A DNA stretch of 20,446 nt from a virus (taxonomy: Duplodnaviria > Heunggongvirae > Uroviricota > Caudoviricetes), in IMG/VR virus record IMGVR_UViG_2529293217_000011; one strand, given 5' to 3'. Position 1 is the stretch's first letter; each line of letters opens with the position of its first letter. The notes under the pieces were generated by a model. It was given only the letters and a program-made list of their open reading frames with translations, made no database searches and was not told the DNA's origin. Below are positions 1 through 18,325 of the stretch, piece after piece. Made by a program: the position numbers and the translations under genes.

Positions 1-359
1 ATTTCGCCGTCTGCCTCCGCAATGGCCACCGCCACATCCAGCACATCTTCCGCTTCACGCGTATCGTGTTTCACATCCTCAATCTCGCGTAACGCGGCAC
101 GACGACCAATTTTAAAATTGGTATCCAGCTGACCGATAATAGTTGCGCTAATCGCATTAATTTCCGAGGTAAACGCAGACAACGCAGGCTGATTACGTAA
201 GACCTGTTCGATCTTCGCTTTCTCGGATGCCTCGCATTCACCATCTGCATAGGCCACCAGGTATGCAGCGTTAATCACCGCCTGTGCCAGATCGCGTTTC
301 TCAAACTTTTTAATTTCCGCTGCCGCTCTGCGGGTTTTCTTTTTGAAGATTCCAAACAT
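1..359 (-). CDS. Hypothetical protein, 5' portion only (continues beyond window start); possibly TerB-like
   Basis: Open frame on - strand from ATG at 359 (AAGGA Shine-Dalgarno about 9 nt upstream) running off the window with no stop; N-terminus MFGIFKKKTRRAAAEIKKFEKRDLAQAVINAAYLVAYADGECE. Not in the ORF track because it is truncated by the window edge. TerB-like assignment is a weak impression only. Confidence 0.5.
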   Translation of the reverse strand, partial: MFGIFKKKTRRAAAEIKKFEKRDLAQAVINAAYLVAYADGECEASEKAKIEQVLRNQPALSAFTSEINAISATIIGQLDTNFKIGRRAALREIEDVKHDTREAEDVLDVAVAIAEADGE

Positions 360-490
360 CGTGACGTTCCTTTGGGTGGGTGAGCCAACGCCCGGGAGCG
401 ATCTGCCCACAGAGAAAGTCACACTGACCACTCCGTAAGCTCACCCCCGAAAGGCTCTGTGGTTGATATGCGCCGGGCGTGGCGCAGATA

Positions 491-515
491 CAAAAAAGGC
501 CCGCCGAAGCGAGCC
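491..515 (-). terminator. Rho-independent terminator downstream of the tRNA pair
   Basis: On the - strand a GC stem (GGCTCGC / GCGGGCC) with a UUCG loop is followed by TTTTTTG; lies immediately 3' of the tRNA at 529-605. Confidence 0.55.
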
Positions 516-528
516 TGGAAAATAAGTG

Positions 529-605
529 TGGCGCGTTGTAGTGGAGTCGAACCACTGACCGATTGCTTAGAAGGCAATTGCTCTGTCCGGCTGAGCTAAC
601 AACGC
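529..605 (-). tRNA. tRNA-Arg (anticodon TCT)
   Basis: 77-nt cloverleaf read by hand on the - strand: 7-bp acceptor stem GCGTTGT/ACAACGC, D-arm GCTC/GAGC, anticodon stem ATTGC/GCAAT with loop CTTCTAA (anticodon TCT), T-arm AGTGG-TTCGACT-CCACT, encoded CCA. Resembles the argN/argO-type tRNAs carried downstream of Q in lambdoid/Stx phages. Confidence 0.8.
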
Positions 606-705
606 AGAATACCGATAATGGACCGCCATCGGGGACCCGCCCCCGCACCAACAACCCTGTTATGGTGTCGTCTGCTCTTCCTGATAAGCTAATGGCGGTT
701 TGTGA

Positions 706-781
706 TGGTGGCCCTTGCTGGATTTGAACCAGCGACCTGGCGATTATGAGTCGCTCGCTCTCACCACTGAGCTAAAGGGCC
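706..781 (-). tRNA. tRNA with anticodon CAT, ileX/ileZ-like (tRNA-Ile2; Met cannot be excluded)
   Basis: 76-nt cloverleaf on - strand: acceptor GGCCCTT/AAGGGCC, anticodon loop CTCATAA, T-loop GGTTCAAATCC, encoded CCA. Close to the E. coli ileX sequence as I recall it. Confidence 0.8.
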
Positions 782-820
782 GGGAGCAGAATAATAACGG
801 TCCGTAATTAATTCCGCAAT

Positions 821-843
821 AAAAAACCCGCTCAATGGCGGGT
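821..843 (-). terminator. Rho-independent terminator between the Q-candidate gene and the tRNAs (tR'-like position)
   Basis: Stem ACCCGC/GCGGGT with 6-nt loop, followed on the - strand by TTTTTTATT; sits about 80 bp 3' of the gene ending at 921. Confidence 0.6.
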
Positions 844-920
844 TCTGGTAAAGTTCATGCGTTTGGTTCGCCTCGCGATACAGCTTTGCGAAGCTTACCG
901 GAATTGAAGCAGTTTTTACG

Positions 921-1475
921 TCAAAAAGCAATAACTTTTTTCTCTATACCAAAAGCCATAACCATTGGTTTGTACAAAATAAATTCTGCCACCTTTAGCC
1001 AATGCTCAATGCGTCTTTCACAGGTTCTTAAACTCCATTCCGGATGTGCATCATTCAGCAGTTCAGCCATTTTGCGCTTAGTCATCCCCCGCCCCACATA
1101 ACGCTGACTCAGAACATTGAGCAGCCCGGGATAACCTGCCAGTACTTCACCAATAACCCTGTCGATTATTAACGCCTCTGAATCGGTACAATGCACCAGC
1201 CAGCTTTTTTGCTTGCCGTTGATCATATCCCGCAAAAAAGCCTCAAGTTTAGGTTTGTCCAGACCTGCTTTTTTCATCCTCCGGAGCGCCTCGTTAATTG
1301 CCGTTTTTGTCAGCTTTTTAGAGGTCAGCAACTGGTTGAACATATTTCCCGTCTTACCGCCGCCAATATACGACCAGCGCCCCCACATACGTAGTTTCCC
1401 CTGAATCCAGACACTTTCCAGCGTGGTGAGACGAAGGTGCTCTCCGCTTTTTCCTGTGTTCGTTGGGTAAATCAT
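921..1475 (-). CDS. Hypothetical phage protein, 184 aa; positional candidate for late-gene antiterminator (Q-like)
   Basis: ORF-track frame 921..1595 trimmed to the ATG at 1475, which overlaps the upstream stop as ATGA (translational coupling). Last gene of the nin-type block before a terminator and tRNAs, the position Q occupies in lambdoid phages. No sequence motif I can tie to Q, so function is positional inference. Confidence 0.6.
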   Translation of the reverse strand: MIYPTNTGKSGEHLRLTTLESVWIQGKLRMWGRWSYIGGGKTGNMFNQLLTSKKLTKTAINEALRRMKKAGLDKPKLEAFLRDMINGKQKSWLVHCTDSEALIIDRVIGEVLAGYPGLLNVLSQRYVGRGMTKRKMAELLNDAHPEWSLRTCERRIEHWLKVAEFILYKPMVMAFGIEKKVIAF

Positions 1476-2860: not shown

Positions 2861-4252
2861 ATGACTGAGAACACGACTCCAACAGCAGACTTTAGTCCTA
2901 GTAAAAGATTTTTTGTAAGTATGCTAACTCGAGATATCGACTTAAACGATGCCATACTTGATCTGCTTGATAACTGCGTCGATGGGGCTTTACGTACAAT
3001 AAAAGACACAAAAAAAACTTCAAAACCATATGAAGGATTTTATGCGAAACTTACGATTAATAAAGATGTCTTTATTATAGAAGACAATTGCGGAGGTATC
3101 CCTAAAAGCTTCCGAGAATATGCTTTTAAAATGGGACGACCCCATCAAAAAGAAGAAGAAAATGAAGGCACCGTTGGCGTCTATGGTATTGGTATGAAAA
3201 GAGCCATTTTTAAAATGGGTAGAGATTGCTCAATACAATCGAATAATCCCGATGGCGCATTCACTGTAGATATAACACCTGATTGGATCGATGGTGATGG
3301 TTGGAAAATACCGATGCACGAGAGTGACTATGATAACAAAAATCCAACAGGCACAACTATAGAGATAAAAAAACTCCATTCTAATGTGGCACAAAAATTT
3401 AATGAGAGCACATATCTTACTGATCTCTTTTTACAGATAAAACACTCATTGTCATTTATTATTCAAAAAGGATTTAAAATAGAATTAAATGGAGTTGTTG
3501 TTGAACATAATCCGATTAACATCATAACTGATCATTCTAAAATAGAACCATACATATATAAAGCTAAAATAGACGATGTTGATATCGATTTAGTTGTTGG
3601 CTTCTATAAAAATTTAGAAGATGACAATGATGATGTTTTAGAAAAAAGGAGTTCTGATGATGCTGGATGGACTGTCATTTGCAATGACCGCGTTGTTCTA
3701 TATTGTGATAAGACACATCTCACAGGTTGGGGCTTTGCTAATGTACCAAGGTTTCATACCCAATTTATAGCAATTTCTGGGGTTGTTCGCTTTACCAGTA
3801 AAAACCCAGAAAAATTACCAATAACAACAACGAAACGAGGTGTCGATCTTAGTTCTACATTGTACAATGATGTACGAAATAAAATGATTGAAGGGATGAT
3901 GCATTTTATTCGATTCACCAATCAGTGGAAAGGTGAGCATCTTGAAGAAGGGAAAAAATTACTTAAGTCAGCTCAGTCACATGAAGCTCAATCTTTATTT
4001 GAAATTACCCCACAATCAACTCCAGAAGATAAAAAAAATAACTGGTCCAACCCTAATAGAAACAAAAATGAGTGGCGATATACACCTAAGCTGCCTACCC
4101 CAGTAAAAAAAAGCTCTACTGTACGAATAATCTTCACCAGAGAGAAAGAAGATGTTAAAATTTTATCTAAATATTTCTTTGGACATGAAGATGCTAGCGC
4201 TTCTGATGTGGGGATGCAATGCTTTGATACGGTGATTGAAGAGGTGAAGTGA
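2861..4252 (+). CDS. GHKL-superfamily (Bergerat-fold) ATPase, MORC/MutL-like N-terminal domain, 463 aa
   Basis: N-terminal motifs read directly from the translation: motif I LDLLDNCVDGA (cf. MutL ELVENSLDA), motif II IEDNCGGIP (DNGxGI), motif III GVYGIGMKRAIF, motif IV NPTGTTIEI. About 290 C-terminal residues with no motif I recognise. Low-GC coding sequence. Confidence 0.8.
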   Translation: MTENTTPTADFSPSKRFFVSMLTRDIDLNDAILDLLDNCVDGALRTIKDTKKTSKPYEGFYAKLTINKDVFIIEDNCGGIPKSFREYAFKMGRPHQKEEENEGTVGVYGIGMKRAIFKMGRDCSIQSNNPDGAFTVDITPDWIDGDGWKIPMHESDYDNKNPTGTTIEIKKLHSNVAQKFNESTYLTDLFLQIKHSLSFIIQKGFKIELNGVVVEHNPINIITDHSKIEPYIYKAKIDDVDIDLVVGFYKNLEDDNDDVLEKRSSDDAGWTVICNDRVVLYCDKTHLTGWGFANVPRFHTQFIAISGVVRFTSKNPEKLPITTTKRGVDLSSTLYNDVRNKMIEGMMHFIRFTNQWKGEHLEEGKKLLKSAQSHEAQSLFEITPQSTPEDKKNNWSNPNRNKNEWRYTPKLPTPVKKSSTVRIIFTREKEDVKILSKYFFGHEDASASDVGMQCFDTVIEEVK

Positions 4253-5241
4253 TGTCTGGACAATACATTCCCTATCACTTAAGGCATAATAAGTCTATTG
4301 ATAGAGAGATTTTTCTCGAAAGCCTAAACCTCTTAAGCAAAAGACTAAATATTCAAGAATATACATATATAGGTTTTGGTGGTCCGATGCTTGAAGATTT
4401 TAGAATCATGCATAATCGTATCGCTCTTTCTGATATGATTTCTCTCGAAGAACAAGAGTCTACTCACATCAGACAAAAATATAATTTGCCTTATAATTGT
4501 ATTGATTGTAAGCTAATATCAGCTCATGACTTTATTCTTGATTATAGTTTTTCTAAACCATCAATAACATGGTTAGACTATGCCTCCCCGAAAAAAATAC
4601 AAACGGATCTAGATGATATACACTTACTAAGTACTAAAGTAAGCTCTTTTGATATTTTGAAGGTCACCTTCCCCATAAATCCTAGTTCTTATTACCAACG
4701 TAGAGTTGGAGAAAGTTTAGATATTTTTAAAGAAGCTTTTATTAATTCATTAAAATCATTGCTTGGGAAAAAGTATCTTGATTTTAATCTTCAGATATCA
4801 AATGCAGATCTTTCAGATCGTAAGATTAAAGCTCTTTTAATACGAATTATTACAAACGCTTTTAGATCAGCAATAGAACGTGGTCTTTCAGGACGTAAGG
4901 ATAAGATTCAGTATTACCCATTATCCTTAAATCAATATAATGATGGCAGTCATACCATGTTGACAATATCAGGTTTTTTCTCCTCAGAACAAGAATATAT
5001 AGAGTTATCTAAGGCATGCGACCTTTCTAACTGGCAATTTTATTCAACAAATTGGGAAGACGTGCAAGAAATAGCAATACCAACACTAACAATTAAAGAA
5101 AAGATAAATTTAGATAGTAAACTGCCTGATAAAGAAGCATATCAGGCAGCCGCTGAAGAGTTCTCTTTAAACGAAAATGAACGGGATAACTATTATAAAT
5201 ACTATAGGTTATACCCTAACTTCCAAAGAATTATGGTTTAA
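4252..5241 (+). CDS. Hypothetical protein, about 330 aa, translationally coupled partner of the GHKL ATPase
   Basis: ATG at 4252 overlaps the TGA stop of the ATPase gene (TGATG); the ORF track starts it at GTG 4249. AT-rich like its neighbour. No catalytic motif (PD-(D/E)xK, HNH, PLD) could be assigned by eye. Confidence 0.7.
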   Translation: MSGQYIPYHLRHNKSIDREIFLESLNLLSKRLNIQEYTYIGFGGPMLEDFRIMHNRIALSDMISLEEQESTHIRQKYNLPYNCIDCKLISAHDFILDYSFSKPSITWLDYASPKKIQTDLDDIHLLSTKVSSFDILKVTFPINPSSYYQRRVGESLDIFKEAFINSLKSLLGKKYLDFNLQISNADLSDRKIKALLIRIITNAFRSAIERGLSGRKDKIQYYPLSLNQYNDGSHTMLTISGFFSSEQEYIELSKACDLSNWQFYSTNWEDVQEIAIPTLTIKEKINLDSKLPDKEAYQAAAEEFSLNENERDNYYKYYRLYPNFQRIMV

Positions 5242-6360
5242 ATATTCGGGCTGTACTCTTTTATTTAATAAATTGTACAGCCCCTTTAATATATATTCAG
5301 CAACTATTGGTGACACGCTATTTCCTATTTGTCTGAAACTATGCCATTTAGTTACATGAAAGCGAAACCAATCAGGGAAGCCTTGTAATCTAGCAGCTTC
5401 TCTTGGTGTAATCACTCTTGGATGATAAGGGTGGATCGGCCTGACGGCTTGAAAGCTTCCTTTATCTCTAGCGGTTCCCGCCCTTAAAGTCGGGCAAAAA
5501 CCATTTGGATCTAATCTTGTAGATCTTGAAATTTTATCAGTTTCCCCAAAAGATAAGGAAGCATAACGCTCTTGGACGATTTTGCTATGTAATGTTCCGG
5601 TACATCCAGATATGATATTATTTTTTAACTTAGCGATCGATTCTGTATCACCAACATTCCGAGGGATCTGCCCCCATAATTTTTCATAAAATCCCCCTTT
5701 TCGATCTTTTTTAATTGTTCGCCAACTCTCAGAGTCTGATTGCCAATTGGCATCGATAATATCTGGTAATCCATACAAAGCATCTTTTACAGTAACCGGA
5801 TCAATCATTTTAGGCATAAATACTTCATCTGAAATATCAAGCTTCAATGATTTTTTTACACCGATAAAAAAATATCTAGTTCGAATAGTTGGAGCACCAT
5901 AATCAGATGCTTTTACCTTGATGGGATCAAGAATATCATAATCACCGCTAACCAAATTAAATGCTTTATTTCTAATGCCAGAATATTTCTCTTGCATAAT
6001 ACCTGGAACATTTTCTGCCAAAAAGAATAATGGCTGTAATTCTGATACTAAACGGTAGAAATGCATGTAAAGCTGATTCCTGCTATCATCAGGATTCCCC
6101 TTGCCTATTGAACTAAATCCTTGGCACGGAGGACCGCCAATAATACCATCTATGGGCATATCGTTTTTAAAAAAACCCTTAATTATTTCTGCATTTAGTA
6201 AAGAAACATCTTCTTGGACGTGCAAACTTCTTGGAAAATTAATTGCGTGAGTATTAATAGCATGTTGATCAATTTCAACTGCCATTTTAACATCAAATCC
6301 AGCACGTGCAGCACCAAGACTTAGACCTCCAACGCCAGAAAACAAATCTATTACATTCAT
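5209..6360 (-). CDS. DNA (cytosine-5)-methyltransferase, 383 aa
   Basis: Canonical C5-MTase motifs: motif I DLFSGVGG, motif IV GGPPCQGFS (catalytic PCQ), ENV, C-terminal motif X QIGNSVSP. The 3' end overlaps the convergent partner gene by 33 bp (5209-5241). Confidence 0.9.
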   Translation of the reverse strand: MNVIDLFSGVGGLSLGAARAGFDVKMAVEIDQHAINTHAINFPRSLHVQEDVSLLNAEIIKGFFKNDMPIDGIIGGPPCQGFSSIGKGNPDDSRNQLYMHFYRLVSELQPLFFLAENVPGIMQEKYSGIRNKAFNLVSGDYDILDPIKVKASDYGAPTIRTRYFFIGVKKSLKLDISDEVFMPKMIDPVTVKDALYGLPDIIDANWQSDSESWRTIKKDRKGGFYEKLWGQIPRNVGDTESIAKLKNNIISGCTGTLHSKIVQERYASLSFGETDKISRSTRLDPNGFCPTLRAGTARDKGSFQAVRPIHPYHPRVITPREAARLQGFPDWFRFHVTKWHSFRQIGNSVSPIVAEYILKGLYNLLNKRVQPEYLNHNSLEVRV

Positions 6361-17949: not shown

Positions 17950-18099
17950 ATGAGATATGACAATGTTAAACCATGTCCATTTTGTGGTTGTCCATCAGTA
18001 ACGGTGAAAGCCATTTCAGGATATTACCGAGCGAAGTGTAACGGATGCGAATCCCGAACCGGTTATGGTGGAAGTGAAAAAGAAGCACTCGAACGATGA
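17950..18099 (+). pseudogene. ralR: ralR (lar, restriction alleviation), truncated at codon 50 by in-frame TGA; frame continues to 18144
   Basis: MRYDNVKPCPFCGCPSVTVKAISGYYRAKCNGCESRTGYGGSEKEALER then TGA (18097-18099), then in frame NKRTTGNNNGGVHV and TAA. The K-12 RalR I recall is 64 aa with TGG (Trp) at this position. Confidence 0.7.
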
Positions 18100-18136
18100 A
18101 ATAAACGAACCACTGGAAATAATAATGGAGGTGTTC

Positions 18137-18325
18137 ATGTATAAAATTACCGCCACTATTGAAAAGGAAGGTGGCACTCCTACTAACTGGACAAGATATT
18201 CAAAATCTAAACTAACGAAATCAGAATGCGAAAAAATGCTCTCAGGTAAAAAAGAAGCAGGCGTTTCCAGAGAGCAGAAAGTAAAACTGATAAATTTTAA
18301 TTGCGAGAAACTTCAGTCCTCGTGA
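18137..18325 (+). CDS. ydaC: YdaC-like protein, 62 aa as encoded (in-frame TGA, then 6 further sense codons)
   Basis: MYKITATIEKEGGTPTNWTRYSKSKLTKSECEKMLSGKKEAGVSREQKVKLINFNCEKLQSS then TGA (18323-18325), then in frame IALYSN and TAA (18344-18346). The K-12 YdaC I recall is 69 aa ending SSRIALYSN. Confidence 0.7.
   Translation: MYKITATIEKEGGTPTNWTRYSKSKLTKSECEKMLSGKKEAGVSREQKVKLINFNCEKLQSS

Follow-up and report, generated by a model that had tools for sequence, protein, structure and literature searches.

In the Stx phage 933W the late control region runs in the order Q, pR', terminators, pT, ileZ-argN-argO, terminator, stx2AB, esterase, S, R and Rz, and the ileZ-argN-argO genes of Sakai Sp5 form the same kind of cluster. 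For the Stx2a phage of Sakai a primary transcription start of the tRNAs has been mapped at the location of pT, between tR' and stx2AB (PMC7547250). The general layout is that of the lambda-type Q/pR'/tR' switch, and for Q21 a paradigm describing the promoter, the pause and the Q-binding element is available (bioRxiv 10.1101/651190). A tRNA gene beside accessory genes is also found in P1, where the non-essential tciABC genes adjoin a gene for tRNA-Ile (PMC10695390).

The stretch of DNA analyzed here (the window) comprises 20,446 nucleotides of a Caudoviricetes record. It carries a Q-type gene followed by tRNA genes and by an accessory gene that is cut by the window edge, all on the minus strand (Table 1). 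The first-pass annotation had likened this order to the ileZ-argN-argO cluster downstream of Q in Stx-converting phages, and the comparison with 933W bears this out. The tRNAs are placed with respect to Q and the late genes as in 933W and Sakai Sp5; ileZ is identical and argO 95% identical to the 933W genes; a degenerate argN lies between them; and pT and the terminator that follows the tRNAs both have homologous counterparts in 933W, with a base-for-base alignment. A NanS-p-type esterase and lysis genes are found further downstream in both phages. The two loci differ in four respects. In the window argN is a pseudo-tRNA. Its Q belongs to another family (DUF1133, related to Q21), and homology to 933W was not found upstream of pT, which includes the leader from Q to tR' that yields StxS in 933W. 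After the terminator the window has tciA/tciB where 933W has stx2AB. Finally, the UCU tRNA carries A37 instead of the G37 of 933W argO. In view of the above, we suggest that the locus is the standard rare-codon tRNA cassette of EHEC lambdoid prophages, placed here in a Rac-type prophage without Shiga toxin and combining two modes of transcription with a supply of scarce decoders. We put the probability of this reading at roughly 80%.

Table 1. Features of the Q-tRNA-accessory gene region, in order of transcription (window coordinates)
Feature	Position	Strand	Basis
Q-type late-gene antiterminator, 184 aa	921..1475	-	Pfam, PHROG, structure match; PGAP start 1475
Candidate late promoter region pR'	867..931	-	Conservation across Q variants
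tR'-like intrinsic terminator between Q and tRNAs	821..846	-	RNAfold
pT, promoter-like site for the tRNA cassette	790..818	-	Alignment to 933W pT
tRNA-Ile2, ileZ type, anticodon CAT/CAU	706..781	-	ARAGORN and Rfam; 76/76 vs 933W ileZ
Decayed argN homologue, pseudo-tRNA	619..698	-	Alignment to 933W argN
tRNA-Arg, argO type, anticodon TCT/UCU	529..605	-	ARAGORN and Rfam; 73/77 vs 933W argO
Intrinsic terminator after tRNAs	491..516	-	Consensus scan and folding
Long imperfect hairpin, leader of TerB gene	382..457	-	RNAfold z-score -4.98
TerB-family (tciA-like) accessory gene, 5' part, cut by window edge	1..359	-	Pfam, PDB, PHROG

Exactly two tRNAs were called by ARAGORN in the whole window, both on the minus strand. 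With the Rfam tRNA model RF00005 (gathering score 29 bits) the CAT tRNA (709-781) scored 72.5 bits (E 2e-14) and the TCT tRNA (532-605) 67.3 bits (E 5.6e-13). Both members of the pair noted earlier are thus real tRNA genes, but they do not simply form a pair, since the spacer between them holds a decayed argN. An Rfam search of positions 340-960 at E<=10 gave nothing credible beyond the two tRNAs: a match to Plastid-ycf2 was rejected as the antisense of ileZ, and matches to Trp and Leu leaders were rejected because they cover only the terminator.

The CAT anticodon is ambiguous by itself, and ARAGORN, which labels from the anticodon alone, calls this gene tRNA-Met; several phage records have it entered under the same name. 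It could then be an extra elongator tRNA-Met that reads AUG and not AUA. However, the acceptor pairs C4:G69 and C5:G68 are those of ileX and ileY, whereas metT and metU have U4:A69 and A5:U68, and the 4:69 and 5:68 pairs are the identity elements on which E. coli TilS mainly relies (PMC11947777). The similarity to the host Ile2 genes extends over the molecule, with 6 differences from K-12 ileY (92% identity) and 8 from K-12 ileX, and the anticodon loop and discriminator A73 are common to all three. The differences from metT and metU are spread over the acceptor, anticodon and T stems. The anticodon stem of ileZ has an A27·C43 mismatch where ileX has G27·U43. RefSeq/PGAP also names the gene tRNA-Ile. 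We therefore regard a tRNA-Met as extremely improbable. Because the 4:69 and 5:68 pairs match those of ileX and ileY and correspond to the E. coli TilS identity elements, the CAT tRNA is assigned to tRNA-Ile2, and judged from its determinants it should read AUA once lysidine has been formed.

The UCU tRNA differs from 933W argO at four positions: a compensatory T-stem pair accounts for two of them, and the A37 mentioned above is a third. It has the same anticodon as the host argU, but only 53 of 77 positions are identical to the K-12 gene; it therefore represents a separate lineage and is no copy of the host gene. The identity nucleotides for ArgRS are A20 and C35, and both are present. In their anticodon loops, both ileZ and the UCU tRNA equal the host isoacceptors. 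The proposal that the two tRNAs serve the rare codons AUA and AGA is in agreement with the tRNA-Ile2 determinants and the UCU anticodon, from which this decoding can be predicted.

The 100-nt spacer between the two genes (705-606) aligns with 933W argN. It has kept the acceptor stem, the D arm and the 3' flank, but has a different anticodon arm and no longer shows the T-loop consensus, with GGGGGCGGGTCCCC in place of GGGGTTCGAGTCCTC. ARAGORN gave no call for the remnant and Rfam no tRNA match even at E<=10 in the 340-960 region. By alignment the spacer argN is best described as a pseudogene, and the cassette as a former trio with a dead middle member.

When IMG/VR was scanned for a conserved 16-mer of the tciA leader, 120 loci were obtained, at which the tRNA set before the same terminator varies. 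No tRNA is present at 49 loci, Ile-Arg(UCG)-Arg(UCU) at 31, the Ile-Arg(UCU) type of the window at 18, Thr-Gly at 7 and Ile-Lys(UUU)-Arg at 4, while a few have other sets. The middle tRNA is found intact, as a UUU (Lys-like) variant, or decayed, in one of two forms that differ in structure and measure 100 nt and 80 nt; its anticodon switches between UCG and UUU among loci, and its decay has been repeated among relatives. The ileZ sequence is unchanged in 40 of 46 copies and variation in argO is mainly confined to the compensatory T-stem pair. Given that ileZ is so constant, that the argO change is compensatory and that decay of the middle tRNA has taken at least two courses, it follows that selection keeps ileZ and argO but not argN.

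The gene upstream of the cassette had been proposed as a Q candidate, and the domain searches agree. Its product matches Pfam DUF1133 (E 1.7e-105), Phage_antitermQ (32.8 bits against a cutoff of 26) and PHROG 753 'anti-termination protein Q-like' (E 2.6e-80); the match to the Q21 structures 6JNX and 6P18 is weak but full-length (E 4e-4). An open reading frame of 224 aa starting at 1595 was rejected as an artefactual upstream extension that overlaps ybcO, because the Pfam match only starts at its residue 41.

A consensus scan of positions 300-1100 did not detect a promoter at the expected position of pR'. A candidate was found through conservation: a block overlapping the end of Q holds TTGCTT (931-926), a 17-nt spacer and TTCAAT (908-903), followed by a second -10-like hexamer, TAAGCT (897-892), and reaches down to 867 with an 8-bp direct repeat, TCGCAAAG/TCGCGAGG. 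Among loci with a Q that is 74-100% identical, the block AAACTGCTTCAAT-N5-TAnGCTTCGCAAAGCTGTATCGCGAGGCGAA is kept and its flanks are variable; the general form in these Q variants is TTGnnn-17-TTCAAT, TAnGCT 5-6 nt further on, and then GCTTCGCAAAGCTGTATCGCGAGGCGAA. Tandem -10-like hexamers and a direct repeat within a conserved block are what the Q21 paradigm leads one to expect, the elements in the window being candidates only. By this analogy the block resembles pR' together with a sigma-dependent pause element, for which TAAGCT could be the candidate, and a Q-binding element with two subsites.

As in the lambda-type switch, an intrinsic terminator follows Q within about 100 nt. RNAfold gives a 9-bp hairpin at 846-823 with the core CCCGC/GCGGG that leads into a U-run (826-821). 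The simple consensus scan of 300-1100 missed this terminator; in Rfam the hairpin weakly matches Trp_leader, aligned to the terminator of that family. A hairpin and U-run with a different stem sequence is found at the same place in all relatives with a related Q. At the other side of the tRNAs, the distal terminator (516-497) is a stem of 8 pairs (6 G-C) ahead of a T-run according to the consensus scan, with a fold energy of -15.6 kcal/mol, and it aligns with the 'terminator upstream of the stx genes' of 933W. The two structures confirm the earlier statement that terminators bracket the tRNAs.

Between tR' and ileZ lies a promoter-like site that the 933W record lists as 'pT; putative tRNA promoter'. 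In the window it consists of TTGCGG (818-813), 17 nt and TATTAT (795-790), 9 nt before position 1 of ileZ. With matches of 3/6 and 5/6 it remains below the threshold of the promoter scan of 300-1100, but the hexamers (TTGC..-17-TTAT.AT) are kept in 24 distinct upstream variants in which the neighbouring bases vary. With a conserved promoter-like site to themselves beyond tR', the tRNAs are probably expressed in the lysogen too, independently of Q, and are thus probably not strictly late.

The cassette is thus probably transcribed in two modes. In the lysogen the tRNAs would be produced from pT, beyond tR', and transcripts would end at the terminator at 516-491. Upon induction, RNA polymerase that initiates at pR' and is modified by Q would read through both terminators and transcribe, beyond the tRNAs, tciA and tciB, the esterase gene and the genes for lysis and morphogenesis. 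The ileZ transcript would have its CAU anticodon converted to a lysidine-containing form by host TilS, so that it is charged with isoleucine and reads AUA, and the argO-type tRNA-Arg(UCU) would read AGA and, by wobble, AGG. In this way the tRNAs would add decoders for three codons that are scarce in E. coli but used in excess by the prophage genes, namely AUA, AGA and AGG.

The gene after the tRNA terminator, visible earlier only as a truncated hypothetical, could be identified by going beyond the window edge. The full product has 143 aa and a TerB fold, with matches to Pfam TerB (E 2.9e-16), the TerB structure PDB 2JXU (E 4.4e-8) and PHROG 632, which has the category 'moron'. It is followed by a 55-aa DUF3927/TciB-like protein and then by the NanS-p-type (SASA) esterase. 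The first-pass annotation predicted a cargo gene at this position: an accessory gene indeed occupies the stx position, but it is TerB/TciA-like and not stxAB or another toxin, nor is it a lysis gene. In 933W this slot is taken by stx2AB, and in Rac-SA53, whose Q is of the same family as that of the window, by a pertussis-like toxin (eplAB). The position suggests that expression of the cargo gene would depend on Q.

The names tciA and tciB are used for the equivalent pair in phage JLK-2012. The window shares with P1 and JLK-2012 the succession of a TerB-family protein and a small DUF3927/TciB-like protein in tciA-tciB(-tciC), but identity to the P1-type Tci proteins is only about 42%, the names being given by homology. 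Homologues of TciA occur in 130 phage records that range from P1-like plasmid prophages to jumbo Erwinia phages. In the RefSeq annotation of O157:H7 PA20 the order on the transcribed strand is DUF1367, YbcO, DUF1133 (Q), tRNA-Ile, tRNA-Arg, TerB protein, DUF3927 protein, SASA esterase, holin, YdfR, lysozyme, antirepressor, Rz, terminase and capsid genes. The remainder of the window, an early region of Rac type, contains integrase, RalR and the RalA antitoxin RNA, RecT, RecE, kilR, sieB, repressor genes, ydaT and ydaV.

Downstream of the distal terminator, before the ribosome-binding site of tciA, the RNA can form a long imperfect hairpin. Over 35 distinct sequences, 90.8% of the alignment cells are paired, compared to 38-51% if the pairing partners are displaced by 1-3 columns. 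Both bases are changed in four pairs, and exchanges between G-C, G-U and A-U are numerous. In our reading of the alignment, a 1-nt insertion in one group of sequences moves the register of the hairpin but keeps the helix; column-based covariation is weak because of this shift. The consensus proposed by RNAalifold, which is different, poorly supported and has 0 compensatory pairs, was rejected, and the long single-sequence hairpin fits the alignment better when pairs are counted explicitly. Just upstream, ACAGAG could pair alternatively with CUCUGU in the 3' arm. The hairpin belongs to no Rfam family, both in the search of the window and in that of 340-960 at E<=10. It is possibly a processing site for RNase III, or an element that influences translation or stability.

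Codon usage gives an indication of what the tRNAs are for. Per 1000 codons, AUA, AGA and AGG occur 12.3, 9.8 and 6.2 times in 38 annotated prophage genes, 6.0, 8.0 and 5.7 times in the late genes downstream of the tRNAs, and 2.4, 1.2 and 0.7 times in 42 core K-12 genes. The odds ratios of all prophage genes against the K-12 sample are 5.1 for AUA, 8.1 for AGA and 9.2 for AGG (each p<=2e-13). Use of AUA is highest in an early-side cassette encoding a GHKL ATPase, an O-methyltransferase and a cytosine methylase, and its enrichment in the late genes downstream of the tRNAs is only mild. The tciA gene itself has 0 AUA and 1 AGA; being almost devoid of rare codons, it is therefore not the specific reason for the presence of the tRNAs. 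Judged by codon content, the tRNAs would fit a general supply of decoders for prophage genes and not a role tied to the cargo. Any one copy of the cassette may be redundant, because O157 strains contain about 8 of them in addition to the host genes ileX, ileY and argU.

Homology to other phages breaks off at the edges of the cassette: near 812/823, immediately before pT, and also at 782 and 516-553. Phage Evi matches the window from 1 to 812 and has a different Q. In turn, vB_EcoS-683R6 matches 823-2400 but has Thr and Gly tRNAs, one O157 strain matches only 490-782, up to the 5' end of ileZ, and JLK-2012 has Asn, Thr and Gly tRNAs before the same terminator and tciA. In relatives that lack tRNAs the tciA leader directly follows tR'. 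The unit of pT, tRNAs and terminator thus behaves as an insertable element between tR' and the first late accessory gene.

Such breakpoints would also be expected if the tRNA genes were mainly hitch-hiking linker DNA, short and highly conserved, that provides crossover points for the mosaic exchange of Q and cargo modules among lambdoid phages, with little or no benefit for translation in any single prophage. This explanation could account for the 49 loci that have the tciA leader without any tRNA and for the recurrent decay of argN, and it would be in line with the finding that codon adaptation is not different between lambdoid phages with and without such tRNAs (PMC4631060). However, the constancy of ileZ is not what mere linker DNA would show, and the argO cloverleaf is preserved by a compensatory T-stem change while argN decays, which points to selection on the function of the two tRNAs. 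In addition, pT is conserved, and active in Sakai (PMC7547250). Use as a linker and function as tRNAs can coexist, but as the main role of the cassette we consider the former unlikely.

The varying composition of the tRNA sets allows another interpretation. Among the targets of anticodon nucleases are Arg, Lys and Asn tRNAs, and tRNAs of phages can neutralise such nucleases. The phage tRNAs could thus replace host tRNAs cut by these enzymes or act as decoys, with colicin D (tRNA-Arg), PrrC/PARIS-type nucleases (tRNA-Lys) and contact-dependent toxins as possible opponents. The tRNA sets, tciA/tciB and the structured leader would then form a module that protects the prophage or its host from tRNA-cleaving toxins instead of simply supplying codon readers, and the turnover of the middle tRNA would reflect an arms race. 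The interchangeable sets (Ile-Arg-Arg, Ile-Lys-Arg, Thr-Gly and Asn-Thr-Gly) before the same terminator and tciA, the alternation of the middle anticodon between UCG and UUU, the tRNA-Ile gene beside tciABC in P1 (PMC10695390) and the name tciA/tciB itself, which stands for 'tellurite or colicin resistance', are compatible with this. Yet the tRNAs have the features of ordinary decoders, with anticodon loops like those of the host, and they correspond exactly to the rarest codons of E. coli, as predicted by the codon supply model. Neither TciA nor the ATPase and O-methyltransferase genes matched a PADLOC defence model. A protective module of this kind is very unlikely, and supply of decoders for rare codons is the preferred role.

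Over its first 2.4 kb the window matches many chromosomes of O157:H7, O111 and related strains with 100% identity. A 361-nt module, scored as present at >=80% coverage, was counted in 2288 of the 5426 complete genomes of E. coli, at up to 13 places per genome. The cassette is already known, being annotated by PGAP and described in the 933W record, which names ileZ, argN, argO, pT and the flanking terminators. The current understanding is thus unchanged; what is added is the dead middle tRNA, the conserved promoter-like site of the tRNAs themselves and the conserved hairpin before tciA. The cassette marks a Q-controlled late 'moron' slot where Shiga toxin and other toxins insert. Its recognition helps in reading the architecture of prophages and in predicting which accessory genes are switched on at induction.

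The leader of the TerB-family accessory gene tciA can be folded into a long imperfect hairpin, with a z-score of -4.98 in RNAfold. Over 35 distinct sequences, 90.8% of cells were paired, as compared with 38-51% in slid controls, and both-sided changes were found at four pairs. Within this region, ACAGAG/CUCUGU is a possible alternative pairing. A match of the hairpin to an Rfam family was not detected. At a few IMG/VR loci (L105, L097, L032 and L116) the leader hairpin lies upstream of sequence other than tciA.

Features of the window and their positions
Feature	Position	Strand	Remarks
Long imperfect hairpin, tciA leader	382-457	-	directly past the tRNA terminator; conserved
Small accompanying hairpin	~466-486	-	
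Middle tRNA	619-698	-	
Hairpin with U-run	821-846	-	5-9 pairs, 6-nt loop, run of 6 T
Conserved block at/after the Q stop codon	867-931	-	kept across Q variants 74-100% identical
AT-rich, AUA-rich three-gene cassette	2861-6360		between replication genes and Q region
86-aa ORF opposite RalA	18065-18325	+	presumed RalR
Full-length RalA antitoxin sRNA	18143-18321	-	Rfam RF02694, 225 bits

The leader is also the site of an insertion in the record of the Stx2a phage Stx2_14040 (L002, PPompW region), where tciA is replaced and the IS110-family element ISEc20 occupies positions 3546-5004. The insertion point corresponds approximately to window position 445, in the 5' arm of the hairpin and immediately after CTTTCGGGGGG. 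The conserved leader sequence may be a preferred target of ISEc20.

The same leader as in the window is present in PP818812 (L011), which was deposited as Actinobacillus phage vB_Apl-pPE4 with Actinobacillus pleuropneumoniae as the host. This record shares about 92% nucleotide identity with the E. coli prophage region of the window across DUF1367, YbcO and Q, and the assigned host looks doubtful.

The middle tRNA turns over fast among the 120 IMG/VR loci (L014-L133) that share a conserved 16-mer of the tciA leader, unlike ileZ, which is almost without variation over the same loci. The forms encountered are intact argN(UCG), a UUU (Lys-like) variant and two structurally distinct pseudogenes with spacers of 100 nt and 80 nt.

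The block near the end of Q contains two -10-like hexamers in tandem (TTCAAT and TAAGCT) as well as a direct repeat of 8 bp, TCGCAAAG/TCGCGAGG, and is a candidate for the pR', pause or Q-binding element of this uncharacterised Q family. The neighboring hairpin with a U-run was not listed by the simple terminator scan although, in our reading, it meets the stated criteria. Negative results of that scan should be treated with caution.

Farther from the tRNAs, the AT-rich cassette comprises genes for an ATPase of the GHKL type (HATPase_c_3), a putative O-methyltransferase (Methyltransf_35) and, in convergent orientation, a C5 cytosine DNA methylase. PADLOC models were matched by the methylase alone; for the ATPase and the Methyltransf_35 gene no PADLOC match was obtained. 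It is possible that the cassette is an unusual defence or restriction-modification-like island. The position of RalA opposite the ORF that is presumably RalR confirms that the early region is Rac-type.

Phage Rac-SA53, a relative that has a Q of the same family, carries the pertussis-like AB toxin genes eplA/eplB in the slot after Q (L010, 1118-2349). This shows that the Q type found in the window also drives toxin cargo.
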